From Escherichia phage vB_EcoM_NBG1, in the sequence record MH243438.1: 64,000 nt of DNA; one strand, written 5' to 3'. The notes beneath the pieces were generated by a model, which was given only the letters and a program-made list of their open reading frames with translations, was not told where the DNA came from and did no database searches. Position 1 is the stretch's first letter. Each line of letters begins with the position of its first letter. A program made the position numbers and the translations under genes. Of the stretch, positions 7,463 through 55,163 are shown piece by piece.

Positions 7463-7882
7463 TTATGCAAAAGATGCTGGACAATATTTTTTGATTTGGA
7501 ACTCAGGAACTACCATGAACTGTCCAGCGAAAACGATGTTATAAAGCTTAACACCATCTTCTACCCATTGGTCCGAAATAAAACCAGCAACTTGATTCGT
7601 TGTCCATGGAGACCCGTCAGTTGCAGCAGCAATAGTAAATTCATGGTCTTTTACAACTAAAACAGACCTGCACAGTTTCCATTTGAACGCACGTTCTTCT
7701 GGCTCAATGAACTGGCTTTTAACGTAACCAATGTTACCATCGGCGTCACGAACTTTAACTTGGTTACGACCAAAAACCGGATCACTCACAGAAAGAACTT
7801 CAACCAACTTCCCAGCAACTTTAGAGCGAGAAGCATCCGATACGTGTACATAATCACCAATAGAGAGATTTGCAATATTCAT
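7463..7882 (-). CDS. MotB-like protein, paralog 1 (KOW-like N-terminus)
   Basis: 139 aa; N-terminal IGDYVHVSDASRSKVAGKLVEV and C-terminal GFISDQWVEDGVKLYNIVF shared with the next ORF; T4 motB map position. Confidence 0.55.
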   Translation of the reverse strand: MNIANLSIGDYVHVSDASRSKVAGKLVEVLSVSDPVFGRNQVKVRDADGNIGYVKSQFIEPEERAFKWKLCRSVLVVKDHEFTIAAATDGSPWTTNQVAGFISDQWVEDGVKLYNIVFAGQFMVVPEFQIKKYCPASFA

Positions 7883-7891
7883 AATAATTCC

Positions 7892-8389
7892 TTAAGCTTT
7901 ACGAGGAGACACATAGCGAGTGATTTCAGATTCTTCAACAACTCGGAAGTCACCTAAGAATACAATATTGTATAGCTTTTTACCATCTTCTACCCATTGG
8001 TCACTAATGAAGCCGCACATAGTATCAGTTTTGCTTGGATAACCGTATTCGTCGATGTAATCAAATTCTTTATCGGTTATAAATTCAACGCCTTTGCAAA
8101 GGGCCCATTTGAACTGTGTAGTAGGCTCAACGATATCGCTTGAAGCAAAGTGTGCAGGTGCAACTTCTTCGCTTGAAGCAAATTGAACTCGTATATGTTT
8201 TTCCAGGAATTTAGGACTCACGTAAGCATACTGGGCATCTTGTCCGCCAAAACTGGGCATGATTCGAACTTTAACTTCTTTAACACGTCCCATGCCGTTA
8301 GTACGAAGCCCTGCTACTTCAACCAGACGACCTGCAGCTTTAGAACGAGAAGCAGGAGATACACGAAGGATTTCACCAATAGTAATCAT
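7892..8389 (-). CDS. MotB-like protein, paralog 2
   Basis: 165 aa; shares SRSKAAGRLVEV and GFISDQWVEDGKKLYNIVF with paralog 1. Confidence 0.55.
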   Translation of the reverse strand: MITIGEILRVSPASRSKAAGRLVEVAGLRTNGMGRVKEVKVRIMPSFGGQDAQYAYVSPKFLEKHIRVQFASSEEVAPAHFASSDIVEPTTQFKWALCKGVEFITDKEFDYIDEYGYPSKTDTMCGFISDQWVEDGKKLYNIVFLGDFRVVEESEITRYVSPRKA

Positions 8390-8417: not shown

Positions 8418-8446
8418 ACTATACTCCATCCATCCTTGGATGTACA
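8418..8446 (-). promoter_or_regulatory. early sigma70-like promoter, PeSL-type variant (TTGTACA-N17-TATAGT)
   Basis: minus strand TTGTACATCCAAGGATGGATGGAGTATAGT, about 25 nt upstream of the ATG at 8389. Confidence 0.55.
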
Positions 8447-8449
8447 ACA

Positions 8450-8944
8450 TTAATTAAGGATATTAACCACAGCACTACGCGGAACTACACTAAAATCACC
8501 TGCATGAACTACGTTCAGAAGTTCAACACCGTCTTCAATCCACTGATCAGTTACCCATCCACAAACTGGACCTGCGAACGGACGTCGAATTGAAACAGCT
8601 TTACACAACAAATCAGTAGGCTCAATAGGCTTAATCAGAGTACCGTACATACAAGCGATATCCATATCAATACAGATGTCTTTAACGGGTTCTACTTCTT
8701 CAATCAACAGTTCAAAGTCTGTGCTTGGAAGGGCGGTAGTAGAAATTGTACCATATGAATTTTTAATTTCTAAGAATAACCAAGGGCCTTCAGCTTGTTT
8801 GATGAAGTTAACAATAGTGAAACTGTTACCTTGAGTGGCACCTAAAATTTCACAAAACTTTTCATAAGCTCGCACTGAAGCACCGTACCAGTTGATTTGT
8901 TTTTCGTCTTTCAGGATGTAAGTAGCCGTAGTATTGATATTCAT
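8450..8944 (-). CDS. MotB C-terminal-domain-like protein, paralog 3
   Basis: 164 aa; C-terminus GWVTDQWIEDGVELLNVVHAGDF matches paralogs 1 and 2; N-terminus unrelated; own PeSL-type promoter. Confidence 0.55.
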   Translation of the reverse strand: MNINTTATYILKDEKQINWYGASVRAYEKFCEILGATQGNSFTIVNFIKQAEGPWLFLEIKNSYGTISTTALPSTDFELLIEEVEPVKDICIDMDIACMYGTLIKPIEPTDLLCKAVSIRRPFAGPVCGWVTDQWIEDGVELLNVVHAGDFSVVPRSAVVNILN

Positions 8945-8975: not shown

Positions 8976-9005
8976 ATTATACTCCAACCATCCTTGGTTG
9001 TAAAC
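8976..9005 (-). promoter_or_regulatory. early promoter cassette (GTTTAC-N17/18-TATAAT with internal inverted repeat)
   Basis: minus strand AGTTTACAACCAAGGATGGTTGGAGTATAAT; identical 30-nt copies at 50967-50996 and 51987-52015. Confidence 0.6.
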
Positions 9006-48345: not shown

Positions 48346-48702
48346 TTAACCGCGGAGCTTATTGAGCTCTTCATAATCAATCCAGGATTCTAACCCAGAT
48401 GGCAGGTCACATTCGATGTTCCACAGAAGCTCTTCAATGGCTTGTAGACGATTGAGTTCTTCAACGGTAATAGTAACCATTGGTTCAACCGGTTTTGCCT
48501 TTTTAACCATCATGTCATTCATCAGGACGTACAAGTCGTCACGAACAACGGTATCATTCCAACCCCATGATTTGGCTGCATACGCTAATGATGATGGGAG
48601 CACATTTAAAACTTCAATAATAGATGGAGATTCAGGACCAAGCTCAGATACACAAACTTCGTATACATCTTGGAAATCTTTAAGATTTAATGAATATGTC
48701 AT
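48346..48702 (-). CDS. hypothetical protein
   Basis: 118-aa acidic ORF; its start region is a 22-nt duplicate of the nrdC 3' end. Confidence 0.55.
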   Translation of the reverse strand: MTYSLNLKDFQDVYEVCVSELGPESPSIIEVLNVLPSSLAYAAKSWGWNDTVVRDDLYVLMNDMMVKKAKPVEPMVTITVEELNRLQAIEELLWNIECDLPSGLESWIDYEELNKLRG

Positions 48703-48721
48703 TTAAAATATTCTCGCAGTT
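48700..48721 (-). repeat. 22-nt direct repeat copy A (CATTTAAAATATTCTCGCAGTT)
   Basis: identical to 49015-49036; contains ATG of gene 48346-48702. Confidence 0.8.
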
Positions 48722-49017
48722 TATTGTTCTACACATGCACAGGAAACTTCGAAATCAGGACCGTCGTACTTCCAGTGATATTCACCAACAGGAATCCAGT
48801 CACCATGCTCGTTTTCTTCATAGTCCTCAGGCTCAAGGCCAACGAATCGCCATTGGACACCGATGATTCTATTACCCATCATTACTCGAAATTCGCCCCA
48901 TGGATTATCAATAGCATACTGAATATCGTTCTTAGCACGAGAGCACATTTCTTGATATAACAAAGTTTCTAATTCGTCCTGGTCATAAGGGCCTGGGAAA
49001 GTTAAATCGATATTCAT
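48721..49017 (-). CDS. hypothetical protein
   Basis: 98-aa acidic ORF with C-terminal CAC; ATGA overlap with nrdC stop. Confidence 0.55.
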   Translation of the reverse strand: MNIDLTFPGPYDQDELETLLYQEMCSRAKNDIQYAIDNPWGEFRVMMGNRIIGVQWRFVGLEPEDYEENEHGDWIPVGEYHWKYDGPDFEVSCACVEQ

Positions 49018-49277
49018 TTAAAATATTCTCGCAGTTGGTCAAATCCACCAATGTGACTTCCGTCAGGAGCAAACACTTGAGGCATCGTCAATCCAACATG
49101 TGTTTCACGTCCAAGCTTAGCCAGAAGCTCAGCAATTTTCTCATCGTCGAACACACCTTTTTCTGGCATAACATTAATGAATTCGAATGGTTGTTTCTTA
49201 ACAGTCAGCAATCGTTTCGCATTATCACAATAAATGCATTTATGAATAGTAGAGTCATACCCGTACACTTTAAACAT
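49014..49277 (-). CDS. nrdC: thioredoxin/glutaredoxin NrdC
   Basis: 87 aa from MFKVYGYDSTIHKCIYCDNAKRLL, near-identical to remembered T4 NrdC; CIYC redox motif. Confidence 0.88.
   Translation of the reverse strand: MFKVYGYDSTIHKCIYCDNAKRLLTVKKQPFEFINVMPEKGVFDDEKIAELLAKLGRETHVGLTMPQVFAPDGSHIGGFDQLREYFK
49015..49036 (-). repeat. 22-nt direct repeat copy B (3' end of nrdC plus ATG of downstream gene)
   Basis: identical to 48700-48721; encodes the nrdC C-terminus QLREYFK. Confidence 0.8.
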
Positions 49278-49683
49278 TATTTTTCCTTTCATCAATTAAA
49301 TATGCAATGCCAAATACAATACATGTAATAAAACCTGTGATACAGATAGAAACCAACAACACTGTACCAAAGAACCAAATCAAGTTATCTTTAGTAGTTT
49401 GTTTGATATCCATCTCACGAATTTCTATAGCTATCGTATCACCTTTATTCAGAAGCGTATAAAACGATGGCGATACACGTCTGTCAAAAACTCGTCCTTG
49501 CTCATCTTTATAGACTGCAATAAATTCTAATTTAGAATATTTTCCTGTAGATTGACCTGAGATTAGCTCTACTACCTCCACAGGAATTACTTTAGTTTCC
49601 ATGTAAGTATTCTGGCTGTTCCAAATGAATGGAATAATAGCAAAAACTAAAGCTGCGATAAAACAACGAAAGCTATATCTCAT
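49270..49683 (-). CDS. membrane protein
   Basis: 137 aa; N- and C-terminal hydrophobic TM segments. Confidence 0.55.
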   Translation of the reverse strand: MRYSFRCFIAALVFAIIPFIWNSQNTYMETKVIPVEVVELISGQSTGKYSKLEFIAVYKDEQGRVFDRRVSPSFYTLLNKGDTIAIEIREMDIKQTTKDNLIWFFGTVLLVSICITGFITCIVFGIAYLIDERKNNV

Positions 49684-49988
49684 TATAATGTTCTCTCAAA
49701 TTTGTGGAAGCATTTACGGCATTTCAATTTCAAGTTATCACTGGTCCAGTTAACCAGTTGGACTTGGATAGTTCCACATTCCGGACATGGATGTTTTGCT
49801 GCCGATTTGGCAGCATTTTCACGTCGTTCAACCATTTTCATTATTTCGTTCCATGCTGGAGGAACGAACTCTTCTTCACCATGAATTTTATCTCGCTGAA
49901 CAAATTCAATCTTTGAACTATCATCAATAAACTTAACCAAGTCATGATTAGTGCTCATATCAATATCCTCTAAAAGACGTAGTTTCAT
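49683..49988 (-). CDS. zinc-ribbon protein
   Basis: 101 aa; CPECG..CRKCFHKF. Confidence 0.55.
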   Translation of the reverse strand: MKLRLLEDIDMSTNHDLVKFIDDSSKIEFVQRDKIHGEEEFVPPAWNEIMKMVERRENAAKSAAKHPCPECGTIQVQLVNWTSDNLKLKCRKCFHKFERTL

Positions 49989-50938
49989 TATAAAACCTCA
50001 ATGGCATTTCGTAAACCATCCGCTTTCGCATTCAGAGCTTTTAACGATTTAGTTTGTTCTTTAATCTGAGCTTCGACTTCTTTCAGACGAGATTTGAGAT
50101 ATTCACGTTCTTCGGCCATAATATCTACCTTTTCTGCTTTAGGTTCTTTAATAGGCTTAGGCTTATACGTATTAGGGTTCTTCAACTTAATTTGAATGCG
50201 AGAACTGAATAACATCGAACCGTTATCTTCGGTTTCATCATGCATTTCTACCACGTCCATGATTCTTAACATCATGCGAAGTTTATAAGACAGCGAACGA
50301 ACGGTTTTATTGTGCTTCTTAATTTCTTCAGCTTTCATGGTGCCGAGATTACGTGAGTAATAATAAGGAACCTGAATATCAATTGATAATGATGCAGTAC
50401 CATTACCGGTTGGTTTGAACACTGCAGTAACCCAATCTTTAGCATGAACTGTATTTGTACGATCATCGCCGCCTGTGAATAATTTACGAGAATGTTTAAA
50501 AAGCATATTCACTTGGTTATTGAATTCACAAGCAAATTTATCAGCAAATTTAGTTTCAGGAATGGTAGATAACCAATCAGCCAAATGAGTCTTTTTAACA
50601 TCATTAACAATAGTGAATTCAACCAAATCGGTTTTAGATGTCACAGATTTAATAAAGCTCGGCTTCATAAAGTTTTTAATGTTATCGCGAGCTACAGTAG
50701 AAGATAATAAACGAGAACGTTTGAACCATTGAAGCAGTGTCCCTAATGAATGAGAATATGCATTTTGAGTATCTTTACAGATATGATTTTCTTGGCCTAT
50801 GTATGTACCAAAATCTCGAAGAATACCACTTACTACATCTCGGTGTGGAACATCAAATCCTAGTGCACCAGAAGCACGTTGGGCATGAACGTTAGCGATA
50901 AGACCTGCAAAGTATTCAATGTAATGTGAACGTGTCAT
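49988..50938 (-). CDS. hypothetical protein with C-terminal coiled coil
   Basis: 316-aa ORF with its own PeSL-type promoter at 50967-50996. Confidence 0.65.
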   Translation of the reverse strand: MTRSHYIEYFAGLIANVHAQRASGALGFDVPHRDVVSGILRDFGTYIGQENHICKDTQNAYSHSLGTLLQWFKRSRLLSSTVARDNIKNFMKPSFIKSVTSKTDLVEFTIVNDVKKTHLADWLSTIPETKFADKFACEFNNQVNMLFKHSRKLFTGGDDRTNTVHAKDWVTAVFKPTGNGTASLSIDIQVPYYYSRNLGTMKAEEIKKHNKTVRSLSYKLRMMLRIMDVVEMHDETEDNGSMLFSSRIQIKLKNPNTYKPKPIKEPKAEKVDIMAEEREYLKSRLKEVEAQIKEQTKSLKALNAKADGLRNAIEVL

Positions 50939-50966
50939 AATATTTTCCTCTCGTTAAGATAAATTC

Positions 50967-50996
50967 ATTATACTCCAACCATCCTTGGTTGTAAAC
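50967..50996 (-). promoter_or_regulatory. early promoter cassette (identical PeSL-type copy)
   Basis: plus strand TTATACTCCAACCATCCTTGGTTGTAAAC; upstream of ATG 50938. Confidence 0.6.
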
Positions 50997-51000
50997 TATT

Positions 51001-51960
51001 TTATGATTTTAATGCATTCATTGCGTTAAAAAGTTTAGAATACTGCAACTGGAGATTCGTTACAACACTTTGAGCATCACGAAGCTTAGCTTGTGCTTTG
51101 TCAAGTTCAACAGACAGTTGGTCCATAGTGGCCTTGATTTGATTGTAATGGTAATCTTCGGCCGGAAGAAGGTCATTAGAAACATTTAGTTTTACTGCAG
51201 ACAGTTTGCACACATTTGGCAAACCTTTAAACATTGATTTAGCCGAAGTAGAATAAGCACTTAGGACTTCGGCTTGTTCAATTGGGGTCCCAGTAAGCGA
51301 TGCTTCAAACAATGCATTTTCCTTTTTAAGATTTTGATAGTATTCAGAGTCTTTGTGCCACCATGGCGCAGGAACCTTTTTACCAATAGATACACGAGCC
51401 TGGATAGCGATATTGCCCTTATTCTTGATAGGGTCGATAATATTAAGCTCACGAGAATAAATTGCTTTAATCTGGTGAATATTATCACCTAAAACTTCCA
51501 ACGCTTGGTGGAATACACGAGCAACGTTATCATTCTTAGGTTTATACGTGAGAGTGAACTCGTTCTCACTGATAACCATGATTTCCAACTTATCGTAAGT
51601 ATATTTCAAATGTTTCATGTTAATTGCTTGAGGACGAATACGAGAAGCAATGGCCATCAGATTGTTAAGGTTATTCCGGAACTGCTTAGCGAAATATTGT
51701 CCTTCACCGCCAATACAAAAATTACGAAGTTTCTGTTTGGCCAATAAACGGCTGAACTCGCCATTTTTAATGAACTCTTTAACGGGTGTGTTAGTAACGC
51801 ATTCAAATTGAGTAAACTTACGAGAATTAATCCCATAATACGAACAGATTTCCTCAATCTCTTCAGGAGTCTTTACAGGCATACGGATAGGATTAGGTCC
51901 TGGAGTATATGCGTTCGAGGTAAATTCTTTGATAAGTTCTCTACGTGTAATAAAAGCCAT
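51001..51960 (-). CDS. hypothetical protein with C-terminal coiled coil
   Basis: 319-aa ORF with its own PeSL-type promoter at 51987-52015. Confidence 0.65.
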   Translation of the reverse strand: MAFITRRELIKEFTSNAYTPGPNPIRMPVKTPEEIEEICSYYGINSRKFTQFECVTNTPVKEFIKNGEFSRLLAKQKLRNFCIGGEGQYFAKQFRNNLNNLMAIASRIRPQAINMKHLKYTYDKLEIMVISENEFTLTYKPKNDNVARVFHQALEVLGDNIHQIKAIYSRELNIIDPIKNKGNIAIQARVSIGKKVPAPWWHKDSEYYQNLKKENALFEASLTGTPIEQAEVLSAYSTSAKSMFKGLPNVCKLSAVKLNVSNDLLPAEDYHYNQIKATMDQLSVELDKAQAKLRDAQSVVTNLQLQYSKLFNAMNALKS

Positions 51961-51986
51961 TTTATATTCCTCATGTTGAAAAATTT

Positions 51987-52015
51987 ATTATACTCCAACC
52001 ATCCTTGGTTGTACA
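51987..52015 (-). promoter_or_regulatory. early promoter cassette (identical PeSL-type copy)
   Basis: plus strand TTATACTCCAACCATCCTTGGTTGTACA; upstream of ATG 51960. Confidence 0.6.
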
Positions 52016-53011
52016 TCATTCCTTAAGAAGTTTTACTACTTGAATAAGATTAGCTCGTTCTGTTTTATTTTTACCATTTAAGCCTGCTAATCGTGAGATT
52101 TCATCGTCAGTCTGTTGAATAGTTACATTAAGTTCGTTAATCAAAGCTTCAAAGTATTTGATTTGCTCAGCATGTTTTGATTCAAATTTCTGAACAGGAA
52201 TAACGTCTTGGTTCAGTTCATCAATAAGGTCTTTAAGAGCATCTTCTTGGTTGATATCATATTCAACTTCTTTTATTTCTTCAACGAGCTCGTCTTTATA
52301 TCTAACGTCTTTTAGTCCTGGTGCTGGTCCTGAAATCTCTTCTTTAAGAGTACAAACATATCCAATACGGTATCCAATGCCGTCTCGCTTGATATCAACT
52401 TCGTCGATAAATCCACAATGTTTAAGCCCGGAGCCGATTATGTCAAAATATCCTTGACGTCGTCCTTCAAACGTTACACGAACTACTAAGACAGTTTTAC
52501 CTGCAACCTTTTGAAGCTCACATTTATAAAAGTCAGTTGAACCTGAATAACGTGGATTAGTTTTAAAGTTCATCTGACGATCTAGGCCCATTTGTAAGCG
52601 TGCTGTTACGGCCATAAAACGTGTTTGGTTCTCGTTAAGATGAGCAACAATCCATTTCAAAGGCATTTTACACTGTTCACGGCCGAACAAATCAGTACGT
52701 CCTAAATTACGCAGGATATTGTTAGAGTTAATCATCGACAGAACGTTAAGTTTATTCAGCGCGCTGAAGATTCCATCGGCCATTGATTTTCCGTAACCTT
52801 TACACGCTTTAATAAGTGCTCGCGGTAGATTAGTATAGATTTCAGACGGCATATGAAAATCAAATTTACTAACCAGTAATTGATGAACTTGGATAGCAAT
52901 TTGTTCATAATTAAGTGCTCTGCGATCATTATGGTCTTTAAACCACACTTTAATCTGTGAAGCACATAAACCGTTAATTTCATGTTTTACCGCATCAGAT
53001 GTAATGCTCAT
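52016..53011 (-). CDS. hypothetical protein with C-terminal coiled coil
   Basis: 331-aa ORF; degenerate PeSL-like element upstream (53041-53070). Confidence 0.65.
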   Translation of the reverse strand: MSITSDAVKHEINGLCASQIKVWFKDHNDRRALNYEQIAIQVHQLLVSKFDFHMPSEIYTNLPRALIKACKGYGKSMADGIFSALNKLNVLSMINSNNILRNLGRTDLFGREQCKMPLKWIVAHLNENQTRFMAVTARLQMGLDRQMNFKTNPRYSGSTDFYKCELQKVAGKTVLVVRVTFEGRRQGYFDIIGSGLKHCGFIDEVDIKRDGIGYRIGYVCTLKEEISGPAPGLKDVRYKDELVEEIKEVEYDINQEDALKDLIDELNQDVIPVQKFESKHAEQIKYFEALINELNVTIQQTDDEISRLAGLNGKNKTERANLIQVVKLLKE

Positions 53012-53073
53012 AACTATTTCCTCAGATTGAATTGGAACTCAAAACCATTATAACCCGTCCTTGGGTAAAGCGT

Positions 53074-53601
53074 TTATGCGTGAACCGTCTTTAAACGTTC
53101 TTCAAATTTCCGAAGAGTACTAATACGTTCTGCTTTCTGTTTTGTATAGTTTGCAATACGTTCTGAAGTGAGAGCGTATCGTTCGTTTACTGTTTCTTTC
53201 ATGAAGTCAGGGATTTCACGAGAAGCTTTAATTTCATCAAACTTATCGAGTACTGCCTGGTCTTCAGCAATTAAATTTTCGTACATCTCGATATCTTTCT
53301 TGATGAAGTCGATATCTTCCTGGGTTACTTTGGATAAACGAGATGCTTTATCCTTTTTGTACTGCTCGTTAGTTTCACGAGACCAGAATAATGTACGTTT
53401 TTTGTTAGTGTTTTTGTAGACTTCCACAATTCCAACTGAATCGATGATAACAATCCAATTCCAGCGAGATTTGAAAATCTGACCTCCGTCCACGGTAATC
53501 TCGTTACCATAAGCAATGTCATTAAAGAACTTACTTTGTGCTTCAGATTTAAATTTACCGTCGTTATAATTTACCAGGTTGAAAATATCTTTAGCGTTCA
53601 T
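53074..53601 (-). CDS. hypothetical protein
   Basis: 175-aa ORF with early promoter GTTTAC-N17-TATTAT upstream. Confidence 0.6.
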   Translation of the reverse strand: MNAKDIFNLVNYNDGKFKSEAQSKFFNDIAYGNEITVDGGQIFKSRWNWIVIIDSVGIVEVYKNTNKKRTLFWSRETNEQYKKDKASRLSKVTQEDIDFIKKDIEMYENLIAEDQAVLDKFDEIKASREIPDFMKETVNERYALTSERIANYTKQKAERISTLRKFEERLKTVHA

Positions 53602-53659
53602 GTTTTACCTCCAGTAGTTGATAGGTCTATAATAACATAACCATAGACCTTGTAAACAA

Positions 53660-53947
53660 CTAAAAGAAACTTTTTTCGGTATTTTTTCCACTGAACCAAA
53701 CAGACTTCGGGATTTTTTGTAATTTTTCAGATTTAAGTTTCTCTTCCTGTTCTTTCTTATATACACCCTTGTCGTACTGGAGCATCTCTATGGCATTCTT
53801 TTGCAAACGATCTAAGGTAATTAAGGCTTTAGTTTTTCCTTTCAAGGAAGAGTCCTGGCGAACCTCCTCACTATATTGCATCGTAGAACTAACCATACGA
53901 TGAGCATACAGTTCGACTGCGGCTTTAATTTTTTGCATAAAATCCAT
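53660..53947 (-). CDS. hypothetical protein
   Basis: 95-aa ORF. Confidence 0.55.
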   Translation of the reverse strand: MDFMQKIKAAVELYAHRMVSSTMQYSEEVRQDSSLKGKTKALITLDRLQKNAIEMLQYDKGVYKKEQEEKLKSEKLQKIPKSVWFSGKNTEKSFF

Positions 53948-54084: not shown

Positions 54085-55086
54085 TTATTTCAGTAAAGTT
54101 ACTTCAGAGATTTCCTCCCAACCATCTTTATCAGTTGAAATAAAATCTGCTACATAAAGAGCGGTACGTAATGATACATTGCGAAGACGAGATACATTAG
54201 CCTTCATCCAGGACAATGCTTTGTACGTTTCTGCATCCGTCAGGCCACGTTTCTGCATCATGTCAGTAGATAATATTACATCTTCAACTCGAACCATAAT
54301 CTCTTCATTAGAGTGTACTCCAAGGTCGAGATACACTGAACGAGATACTAAAGCTTGAAGGTGTGGAGCAAGTTTCGAACCCCGTTCTAACTCTTTATCG
54401 ATATCAACGTTTGTAATGAAAACGATAGTACCTTCAAACTCAAATTCTTTATCAATACCCTTATCCTCGAGATAAGATGACGCAGTGCTCCAACAAACTT
54501 TGCGTTTATCGCCTGTATCTAATGCTGCTTTAAGAAGGTTCAAGATGTCCATATCTGAGAATACGTCAACGTCGTCGATTAAGAGAACGCTGTCTGCATC
54601 ACGGTTGAGCCAAAGTTGTTCGTAAAGGCCAATACCAGAGATTTTACCATTAATGCTTTTGTATTTGATGAAACCATTACCATTAGCATTATTAAGTGCT
54701 TTATCCAGAGAGTACGTCTTACCAATACCGGCTGCACCTGAAATAATGAGTGAACGAATTTTGCCATCGATAATGCCATTCGTCATCATGTTCATTACTT
54801 TAAAGCGTTTGTTGATACGAGTTTTCATATCTTCAGCGCTTTCAATAACTGCAACTGGTGACGTCTCAACTCCTTCCATTACGATGTCTGATTTGAAGAC
54901 CCATACTCCACGTTCAGAACCATCAATCATAACGAAAATTTTACCATCACCTAAGTGGGAACATTCAGGATTAAGCTTTGCCGGGAACCATGTCTTTGTG
55001 GCGACATAAGAACCAGAGATTTCGTTATTACGATAGATACCTTTTTTGATTTGAACGTTGAACATTTTATTCTCCAATTTACTCAT
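54085..55086 (-). CDS. P-loop NTPase (AAA-like ATPase)
   Basis: 333 aa; Walker A ISGAAGIGKT and Walker B VLLIDDVD, preceded by an about 110-aa N-terminal domain. Confidence 0.7.
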   Translation of the reverse strand: MSKLENKMFNVQIKKGIYRNNEISGSYVATKTWFPAKLNPECSHLGDGKIFVMIDGSERGVWVFKSDIVMEGVETSPVAVIESAEDMKTRINKRFKVMNMMTNGIIDGKIRSLIISGAAGIGKTYSLDKALNNANGNGFIKYKSINGKISGIGLYEQLWLNRDADSVLLIDDVDVFSDMDILNLLKAALDTGDKRKVCWSTASSYLEDKGIDKEFEFEGTIVFITNVDIDKELERGSKLAPHLQALVSRSVYLDLGVHSNEEIMVRVEDVILSTDMMQKRGLTDAETYKALSWMKANVSRLRNVSLRTALYVADFISTDKDGWEEISEVTLLK

Positions 55087-55163
55087 TTCGTTTCGATAGG
55101 TCTATAATAACATATCCTAAAAGCATGTACACTACTTTTTTAAAAATATTTTAACCCCCTAAA

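Follow-up and report, generated by a model that had tools for sequence, protein, structure and literature searches.

Why does a T-even phage keep, near nrdC, three consecutive genes of similar length, each with a promoter of its own, and what do their products do during infection? We addressed this question for three open reading frames, ORF1, ORF2 and ORF3, of Escherichia phage vB_EcoM_NBG1 (sequence record MH243438.1), within a stretch of 64,000 nucleotides (nt) that is called the window here. The explanation that we favour, with moderate confidence, is that they are the Mosigvirus forms of nrdC.3, nrdC.5 and nrdC.6 and encode early- or middle-expressed accessory paralogs that inhibit host defence. 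The families are already named in T-even phages, and one of them has a published anti-defence activity; what is new is modest and consists of evidence joining the nrdC.3, nrdC.4, nrdC.5 and nrdC.6 families by a common architecture and of the exact cassette structure around ORF2. These findings extend current views and overturn none.

Identity of the three genes

The 3.2-kilobase region is 98.6% identical to its counterpart in Escherichia phage vB_Eco_F31 and matches 516 T-even phage records, and judged by its sequence the genome is of the Mosigvirus T-even type, with RB69/JS09-like genomes as the best matches. The counterpart segment of T4 runs from nrdC.1 to nrdC.11 and is flanked by nrdC and mobD. 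In each of the three genes (Table 1) a GAGG Shine-Dalgarno sequence lies about 8 nt ahead of the ATG, tblastn against phage records returned 653 matches for ORF1, 132 for ORF2 and 741 for ORF3, and the ratio of nonsynonymous to synonymous substitution rates (dN/dS) among Mosigviruses is 0.06-0.23, indicating purifying selection. Because the reading frames, the ribosome-binding sites, the conservation and the purifying selection agree, we regard all three as real genes; the series of three consecutive genes of 316, 319 and 331 amino acids (aa) reported by an earlier, sequence-only reading was thus borne out, with exact reading frames conserved in hundreds of T-even genomes. Positive selection on the three genes was considered and is not supported at this low dN/dS. 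A first, word-indexed homolog search with ORF2 yielded only relatives with at least 80% identity, and locus searches of IMG/VR gave two loci with ORF2 alone and four with an ORF2/T4 alignment; the comparative work was therefore carried out on GenBank phage records. The named homologs of all three families are either phage proteins or proteins labelled E. coli or Shigella, and we take the latter to be phage DNA within bacterial assemblies.

The same reading had recognised no relatives of the three proteins, a view that the homology to T4 nrdC.3, nrdC.5 and nrdC.6 overturns. ORF1 is 57% identical to T4 nrdC.3 (BLASTP, E 3e-121) and more distantly similar to T4 nrdC.4 (E 8e-5); it matches phrog_1435 at E 6e-105, PF26897 is found on its homologs, and all 653 phage records that it matches are T-even-like. 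Its stop codon overlaps the start of the nrdC.2 homolog at 49988, and the sequence match together with this overlap identifies it as the nrdC.3 ortholog. It retains the synteny of nrdC.3, and T4 nrdC.3 and nrdC.4, which share phrog_1435 and PF26897, are, like T4 nrdC.6, uncharacterised, non-essential early/middle genes. ORF2 is only 25% identical to T4 NrdC.5 over 308 aa (BLASTP, E 6.5e-10). Both proteins match Pfam DUF7235, T4 NrdC.5 at E 5e-126 and ORF2 at E 1.1e-122 over profile positions 1-307 of 307, and ORF2 also matches phrog_2351 (E 1e-98), so that its profile matches place it in the NrdC.5/DUF7235 family. Its neighbours are the nrdC.6-like gene on one side and the nrdC.3 gene on the other, which is the T4 arrangement save that a counterpart of T4 nrdC.4 is absent from the window. 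ORF2 and T4 NrdC.5 thus have the locus, the length class and a C-terminal coiled-coil module in common, whereas the T4 protein carries two insertions in its N-terminal half that ORF2 lacks. ORF3 is 29% identical to T4 nrdC.6 (BLASTP, E 5e-19), matches phrog_2257 at E 1.2e-127, and PF26899 is found on its homologs; on these sequence criteria it is a member of the NrdC.6 family, which is marked by the invariant motif NQ-R-x2-A-x2-ARL-x2-G-x3-QM-FKT. The nrdC.6 proteins of T4 and T6 are 36-56 aa shorter than ORF3, the extra residues of which form an acidic linker insertion, while synteny is kept.

As a side observation, nrdC.6 of the T4 reference NC_000866 (275 aa; locus L001, 8067-8894) is frameshifted at its C-terminus and truncated in comparison with the 295-aa T6 protein and others, and the frameshifted remainder fills the gap ahead of nrdC.5. 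The T4 annotation in the HIDEN-SEQ supplement gives nrdC.6 as 891 nt, so that the discrepancy reflects a difference between strains or else an error in sequencing.

The genes on the flanks of the locus are much closer to T4 (nrdC.8 83% and nrdC.10 77.5% identity by BLASTP), and ORF1, ORF2 and ORF3 are therefore unusually divergent. ORF2 has both the highest dN and the highest dS of the locus, and this joint elevation suggests allele exchange at ORF2.

GenBank labels such as 'thioredoxin' and 'tail sheath' are frequent in these families and, taken at face value, would give the three products a structural, replicative or other housekeeping role in the phage. We consider this very improbable, since the labels are annotation errors propagated from the nrdC.x gene names, the proteins are without a thioredoxin or structural domain, neither sequence nor fold searches brought up a relative in the PDB, transposon insertions are tolerated in the T4 homologs, and some viable phages lack the genes or carry them in truncated form. 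The sequence-only reading had named homology to structural or housekeeping proteins as the finding that would count against an effector role; such homology was looked for and not found. The 'thioredoxin' label of the ORF1, ORF2 and ORF3 families is hereby corrected. Misannotation of nrdC.x genes as 'thioredoxin' is widespread, and the T6 record has them as tail or baseplate proteins; the labels derive from names and neighbours, and the corresponding domains are absent.

Table 1. Coordinates of the three genes, their C-terminal modules and their promoters in the window
Feature	Position	Strand	Assignment and basis
ORF1, 316 aa	49988..50938	minus	T4 nrdC.3 ortholog; phrog_1435; precomputed Pfam PF26897
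ORF1 C-terminal coiled-coil module, aa 267-316	49991..50140	minus	predicted from heptad pattern
ORF1 promoter cassette	50958..51000	minus	-35 TTTACA 50995-50990, 17-nt spacer, -10 TATAAT 50972-50967
ORF2, 319 aa	51001..51960	minus	Mosigvirus-type NrdC.5 family; DUF7235/PF23882, phrog_2351
ORF2 C-terminal coiled-coil module, aa 267-319	51004..51162	minus	predicted from heptad pattern and AF2 helix
ORF2 promoter cassette	51978..52020	minus	-35 TGTACA 52015-52010, 17-nt spacer, -10 TATAAT 51992-51987
ORF3, 331 aa	52016..53011	minus	Mosigvirus-type NrdC.6 family; phrog_2257; precomputed Pfam PF26899
ORF3 C-terminal helical module, aa 278-331	52019..52180	minus	AF2-predicted helix-turn-helix
ORF3 promoter, MotA-type middle	53047..53075	minus	aaacGCTTTA 53075-53066, 13-nt spacer, TATAAT 53052-53047

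Early and middle promoters of the three genes

Each gene had been credited with a strong early promoter of its own, and this stands for two of the three: the predicted σ70 promoters of ORF1 and ORF2 agree with the consensus at 11 and 10 of 12 positions, respectively, while ORF3 has a MotA-type middle promoter instead. The two early promoters have an identical 26-mer, ACAACCAAGGATGGTTGGAGTATAAT, in common, which occurs in the window in three exact copies and one copy with three mismatches, against none expected. They belong to a pair of 43-nt direct repeats (repeat family D2) that are 88% identical, 1020 nt apart and placed on both sides of ORF2, and the cassette of ORF2 overlaps the stop codon of ORF3. 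In T4, no promoter-like sequence is found in the 110 nt upstream of nrdC.5, whereas ORF2 has an early-promoter cassette to itself. ORF2 is thus a concrete case of an accessory gene between identical promoter cassettes, which is relevant to the swapping of accessory genes among T-even phages.

A small hairpin occupies the spacer of all three promoters (50973-50989, 51993-52009 and 53053-53065), between the -35 hexamer or MotA box and the -10 hexamer. It reads CAACCA-AGGA-TGGTTG in the early cassettes, where GGAG comes after it, and takes the imperfect form ACCCA-AGGA-CGGGT upstream of ORF3. The stem of 5-6 base pairs (bp) shows compensatory changes across copies and phages (including loci L001 and L008) around the constant AGGA loop, the variants being AACCA/TGGTT, AGCCA/TGGCT, ATCCA/TGGAT and TTCCA/TGGAG. 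Possible roles include a DNA cruciform, an RNA element in read-through transcripts and a processing site.

Upstream of ORF3, a -35 hexamer at 17 bp was not found. MotA boxes follow the pattern (a/t)(a/t)(a/t)TGCTTtA at 12 ±1 bp from an excellent -10 sequence, with deviations tolerated (PMC2988021), and the sequence ahead of ORF3 departs from this box at one position, with C for T before GCTT. It aligns with CCGCTTTA-N12-TATAAT upstream of T4 nrdC.7, for which the start predicted at T4 position 53325, 23 nt ahead of the ATG, coincides with PnrdC.7, a mapped T4 middle promoter (Table 1 of PMC2988021). By this alignment, the ORF3 promoter is identified as the ortholog of the MotA-type middle promoter PnrdC.7. 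The change of driven gene goes together with a change of gene order: nrdC.7 sits between nrdC.8 and nrdC.6 in T4, whereas in the window an nrdC.7-like membrane-protein gene (49270-49683; 41% identity to T4 nrdC.7) has moved beside nrdC, between nrdC and nrdC.2, and the PnrdC.7-type promoter therefore directly drives ORF3. No terminator-like sites were found in the gaps between the three genes, and read-through from gene to gene is therefore also expected.

The 26-nt promoter core recurs at 8976-9001 (minus strand, exact) and at 8418-8443 (minus strand, three mismatches, including a compensatory change in the hairpin), each time ahead of one member of a tandem of three MotB-like paralogs (8450-8944 and 7892-8389; the third lies at 7463-7882). 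With copies at the MotB-like genes as well as at ORF1 and ORF2, one cassette appears to serve two paralog arrays 42 kilobases apart. A second cassette pair, 42 nt long and 81% identical (TTTACA/TGTACA, 16 nt, TATTAT with TG), is located at 53620-53661 and 55095-55136, upstream of the nrdC.8 and nrdC.10 homologs.

Probable remote homology among the three families

When compared with one another by BLASTP, the three proteins show no similarity (best E 3.1), in agreement with the sequence-only reading; remote homology nevertheless emerges through intermediates, profiles and Foldseek. We consider it quite probable that ORF1, ORF2 and ORF3 belong to one superfamily that is restricted to T4-like phages and grew through tandem duplications in the T4/RB69 lineages. 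Comparison by hhalign shows the nrdC.3 and nrdC.4 families to be homologous, with 96-97% probability (E 4e-10) over about 240 columns. Other links pass through a bridge family consisting of Marfa gp080 and IME523 gp085. An exhaustive HMMER search with the ORF2-family profile, which found nine cluster representatives among 1.84 billion proteins, led to a 315-aa protein of Klebsiella Marfavirus phages (P0215), which in turn retrieved, by tblastn, a relative of 335 aa from Enterobacter phage IME523 (E 2e-9). In both phages the bridge gene is single and immediately precedes the nrdC.2 homolog, at the place that nrdC.3 and ORF1 occupy. The superfamily would probably have arisen by tandem duplication of a gene that T4-like phages of Klebsiella and Enterobacter still carry as a single copy ahead of nrdC.2.

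Profile-profile (HH) comparison links the bridge family with the nrdC.3 family (86.6%, E 4.5e-6, 260 collinear columns), the nrdC.4 family (80.9%, E 1.3e-5) and the nrdC.5 family (95.1%, E 3.4e-8, chiefly in the C-terminal 70 residues), and the hidden Markov model (HMM) of the nrdC.6 family matches IME523 gp085 at P 6.5e-11 over the central helix, the ββαββ unit and the C-terminus, with reversed controls at 0.03. In iterative profile searches with an inclusion threshold of 1e-4, the run started from the bridge family recruited the nrdC.5 (1e-10) and nrdC.4 (5e-7) families in its first round, in which reversed decoys scored no better than 0.29, none being better than 0.1 in that run as a whole; the run started from the nrdC.6 family ended after recruiting IME523 gp085 alone. 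Inclusion of the nrdC.5 family in the run started from the nrdC.4 family was not relied on, as it may be an effect of a chimeric protein, P0049, and a match of the nrdC.3 profile to T4 NrdC.5 (E 9e-17) was discarded as non-collinear after it had been traced to the same chimera in the alignment.

Structure prediction points in the same direction for ORF3. Its AlphaFold2 (AF2) model, with a predicted local distance difference test (pLDDT) score of 71, consists of a helical N-domain (3-141), a ββαββ unit (162-222), a disordered stretch (226-277) and C-terminal helices (281-330). Its Foldseek matches include a 335-aa IME523 protein at E 9.7e-9 with full-length coverage, presumably gp085 by phage and length, and proteins of about 300-335 aa from T4-like phages of Pectobacterium, Acinetobacter, Klebsiella and Yersinia. 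The ORF2 model, built from 56 sequences, is poor (overall pLDDT 51), its sole confident segment being a helix at 267-318 (pLDDT 74-89). Some Foldseek targets are common to the two models, and the order of predicted elements is the same in both: N-terminal helices, ββ, α, ββ, a disordered linker and a C-terminal helix.

C-terminal coiled coils had been proposed for all three proteins. The proposal is well supported for ORF1, with a continuous heptad pattern that scores 0.88 and is reached by 1% of shuffles, and for ORF2, with a score of 0.95 that 0% of shuffles reach and the AF2 helix; it is weaker for ORF3, where the score of 0.72 is reached by 13% of shuffles and is not significant alone, and where AF2 predicts a helix-turn-helix (helices 281-307 and 313-330). 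From these comparisons, we propose that members of the superfamily would begin with a helical N-domain that varies, followed by a conserved helix (F/N-R-x5-L-x3-S/A-R-L) that runs into ββαββ, by a linker that is hypervariable and disordered, and by a conserved C-terminal module combining a P-x-E-x2-H/Y motif with a putative coiled coil of about 45 aa that ends in L-x2-A-x3-L-K.

Several observations weigh against a common origin. Direct hhalign comparisons of the nrdC.3 with the nrdC.5 and nrdC.6 families, and of the nrdC.6 with the nrdC.4 and nrdC.5 families, are not significant, the E values being 0.002-0.07 for the three pairs among the nrdC.3, nrdC.5 and nrdC.6 families, and a direct link between the nrdC.4 and nrdC.5 families proved unstable, falling from 87.7% to 11.6% once the alignment was deepened. 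The signal between the bridge and nrdC.5 families comes mostly from the C-terminal 70 residues, so domain swapping could explain part of the links; P0049, a natural nrdC.5::nrdC.3 chimera, can create false bridges; and at the low confidence of the ORF2 model its Foldseek matches lend weak support only. The same facts would suit three unrelated ORFans assembled by shuffling of cassettes like the promoter-early stem-loop (PeSL) modules of T4-type phages, with the apparent homology reduced to a shared or exchanged C-terminal coiled coil and composition: the direct profile comparisons of the three families are not significant, the strongest cross-family signals include the C-terminus, chimeric genes exist at the locus, and cassette repeats stand on both sides of ORF2. 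We nonetheless hold this to be quite unlikely, because the alignments of the nrdC.3 and nrdC.4 families with each other and with the bridge family extend over 230-260 collinear columns outside the coiled coil, the nrdC.6 match to IME523 gp085 takes in the central helix and ββαββ, the Foldseek matches are full-length, ORF2 and ORF3 agree in the order of their secondary structure, and the best reversed decoy of any run (started from the nrdC.4 family) reached only E 0.009 against the inclusion threshold. If the superfamily is true, it provides a defined architecture to dissect, in which a conserved coiled-coil tail carries a variable head.

A probable role in counteracting host defence

Independent early promoters had been taken as a sign of host-takeover or anti-defence effectors. 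This argument now holds for two genes only, but the expectation itself gains from evidence of other kinds. A T4 clone whose deletion takes in nrdC.5 fails to plate on cells carrying Dsr1, a system from E. coli ECOR17, and plasmid-borne nrdC.5 restores plating (Srikant, Guegler & Laub 2022, PMC9391042). Dsr1 combines a SIR2 NADase with a TPR sensor domain that is homologous to that of Avs7 and recognises phage major capsid proteins (PMC12803255), and a blocker made early in infection is therefore plausible. Of the genes nearby, gp49.2 inhibits OLD (PMC13096335) and nrdC.1 inhibits Septu (bioRxiv 10.1101/2025.11.20.689424), and T4 nrdC.3 to nrdC.6 were all scored as non-essential (supplement, bioRxiv 10.1101/2025.11.20.689424). 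No enzyme, structural or housekeeping signatures were found in ORF1, ORF2 and ORF3 by domain, profile and fold searches, and no PDB relatives by sequence or fold. Given the early/middle expression, the non-essentiality, the divergence between genera, the variable-head/conserved-tail architecture and the position in an anti-defence region, we infer that the three products are most likely pre-replicative protein inhibitors of host defence proteins, and by its family ORF2 would be the best candidate for anti-Dsr1 activity.

Our working model is as follows. ORF1, ORF2 and ORF3 would be accessory, dispensable genes within the hyperplastic pin-nrdC-mobD region and would be expressed before replication, ORF1 and ORF2 from their near-identical σ70 cassettes and ORF3 from its PnrdC.7 ortholog together with read-through. 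Each protein may oligomerise via its C-terminal coiled coil, whereas the divergent N-terminal and ββαββ part may bind directly to a host anti-phage sensor or effector and block it. T4 NrdC.5 would be the case directed against the SIR2/TPR protein Dsr1, and other paralogs and alleles would cover other defences. A working analogy, no more, is offered by DSAD1, the SPbeta-phage inhibitor of DSR2, which binds a defence-associated sirtuin and blocks its activation by a structural protein; no sequence or fold relation between DSAD1 and the NrdC-family proteins was found. A more far-reaching version, which we put forward only tentatively, is that NrdC.3-6 form a modular anti-defence family of T4-like phages, in which the common coiled-coil tail would oligomerise or dock and the N-domains hit different sensors, ORF1 and ORF3 being directed against defences so far unmatched to phage counter-measures, and the cassettes would shuffle these specificities. 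If the superfamily is true, the link between T4 NrdC.5 and Dsr1 gives reason to test the whole set of paralogs and alleles carried by hundreds of therapeutic-type T-even phages as determinants of host range.

The anti-defence explanation has to be weighed against several points. Its experimental anchor is T4 NrdC.5; at an identity of only 25% to the tested protein, the specificity of ORF2 may differ or be lost; T4 NrdC.5 itself could act on Dsr1 indirectly; and HIDEN-SEQ names nrdC.1 as the anti-defence gene of the locus and reports none for nrdC.3, nrdC.4 and nrdC.6. The three proteins might instead be factors of host takeover or phage physiology, acting on host transcription, the nucleoid, metabolism or growth under special conditions, with an anti-Dsr1 effect that is indirect or peculiar to NrdC.5. 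In favour of this, the three genes would be expressed early or in the middle period, as many T4 takeover genes are, their T4 homologs are dispensable in the laboratory, and MotB-like transcription-factor paralogs elsewhere in the window stand behind copies of the same promoter cassette. We judge this unlikely, however, as the proteins gave no match to a DNA-binding, enzymatic or known regulator domain, defence evasion is the only known phenotype of any family member, the locus is rich in proven anti-defence genes, and the extreme divergence between genera, beside flanks at 77-83% identity, is more readily explained by an arms race than by a conserved host target. Inhibition of host defence thus remains the reading that we prefer for all three genes.

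Promoter cassettes and recombination at the locus

The arrangement of the locus recalls the PeSL cassettes of T4-type phages (Arbiol et al. 2010, PMC2839356; Comeau et al. 2014, PMC4122927). Similar to these, near-identical short intergenic promoter modules, each with a predicted hairpin, are repeated in a hyperplastic region around variable genes, and footprints of recombination are seen in related phages. The PeSL order of a σ70 early promoter followed by the Shine-Dalgarno sequence and the ATG is found at ORF1 and ORF2 and not at ORF3, the cassette of which is MotA-type and may be compared with the 'PmSL' of phage nt-1. A further difference concerns the stem-loop, which in PeSL cassettes lies upstream as a composite terminator/promoter, whereas the hairpin in the window lies inside the spacer between the -35 (or MotA box) and -10 sequences and is not followed by a run of T. 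Apart from the hairpin placement and the one MotA-type cassette, the dynamics of the locus, as far as sequence comparison can tell, match the PeSL concept.

The footprints take several forms. In phage ACG-C40 (locus L009, 6805-7213) a deletion leaves an N-terminal fragment of nrdC.5 beside a C-terminal remnant of nrdC.3, and phage Pinarejo (locus L010, 7001-7135) retains an unannotated remnant of an ORF3-like C-terminus. Phage moha (locus L013, 5699-5990) has an extra gene for a 66-aa hydrophobic membrane protein between its ORF3 and ORF2 homologs, and past this gene come a duplicated 3' end of ORF2 and an ORF1-type (TTTACA) promoter; the duplicated junction is therefore evidence of recombination between the two cassettes. 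The chimera P0049 is a natural in-frame hybrid of nrdC.5 and nrdC.3. We propose that the repeated promoter cassettes may serve as recombination substrates by which genes are added, deleted and swapped at this locus.

Two further observations concern the neighbouring genes. A perfect 23-nt direct repeat (48699-48721 and 49014-49036) duplicates the 3' end of nrdC (…REYFK, with overlapping stop codon and ATG) and flanks a 98-aa open reading frame at 48721-49017, resembling the footprint of a gene insertion. The nrdC.10 homolog (54085-55086, 333 aa) shows weak matches to P-loop AAA and STAND-type NTPases, below the Pfam thresholds.

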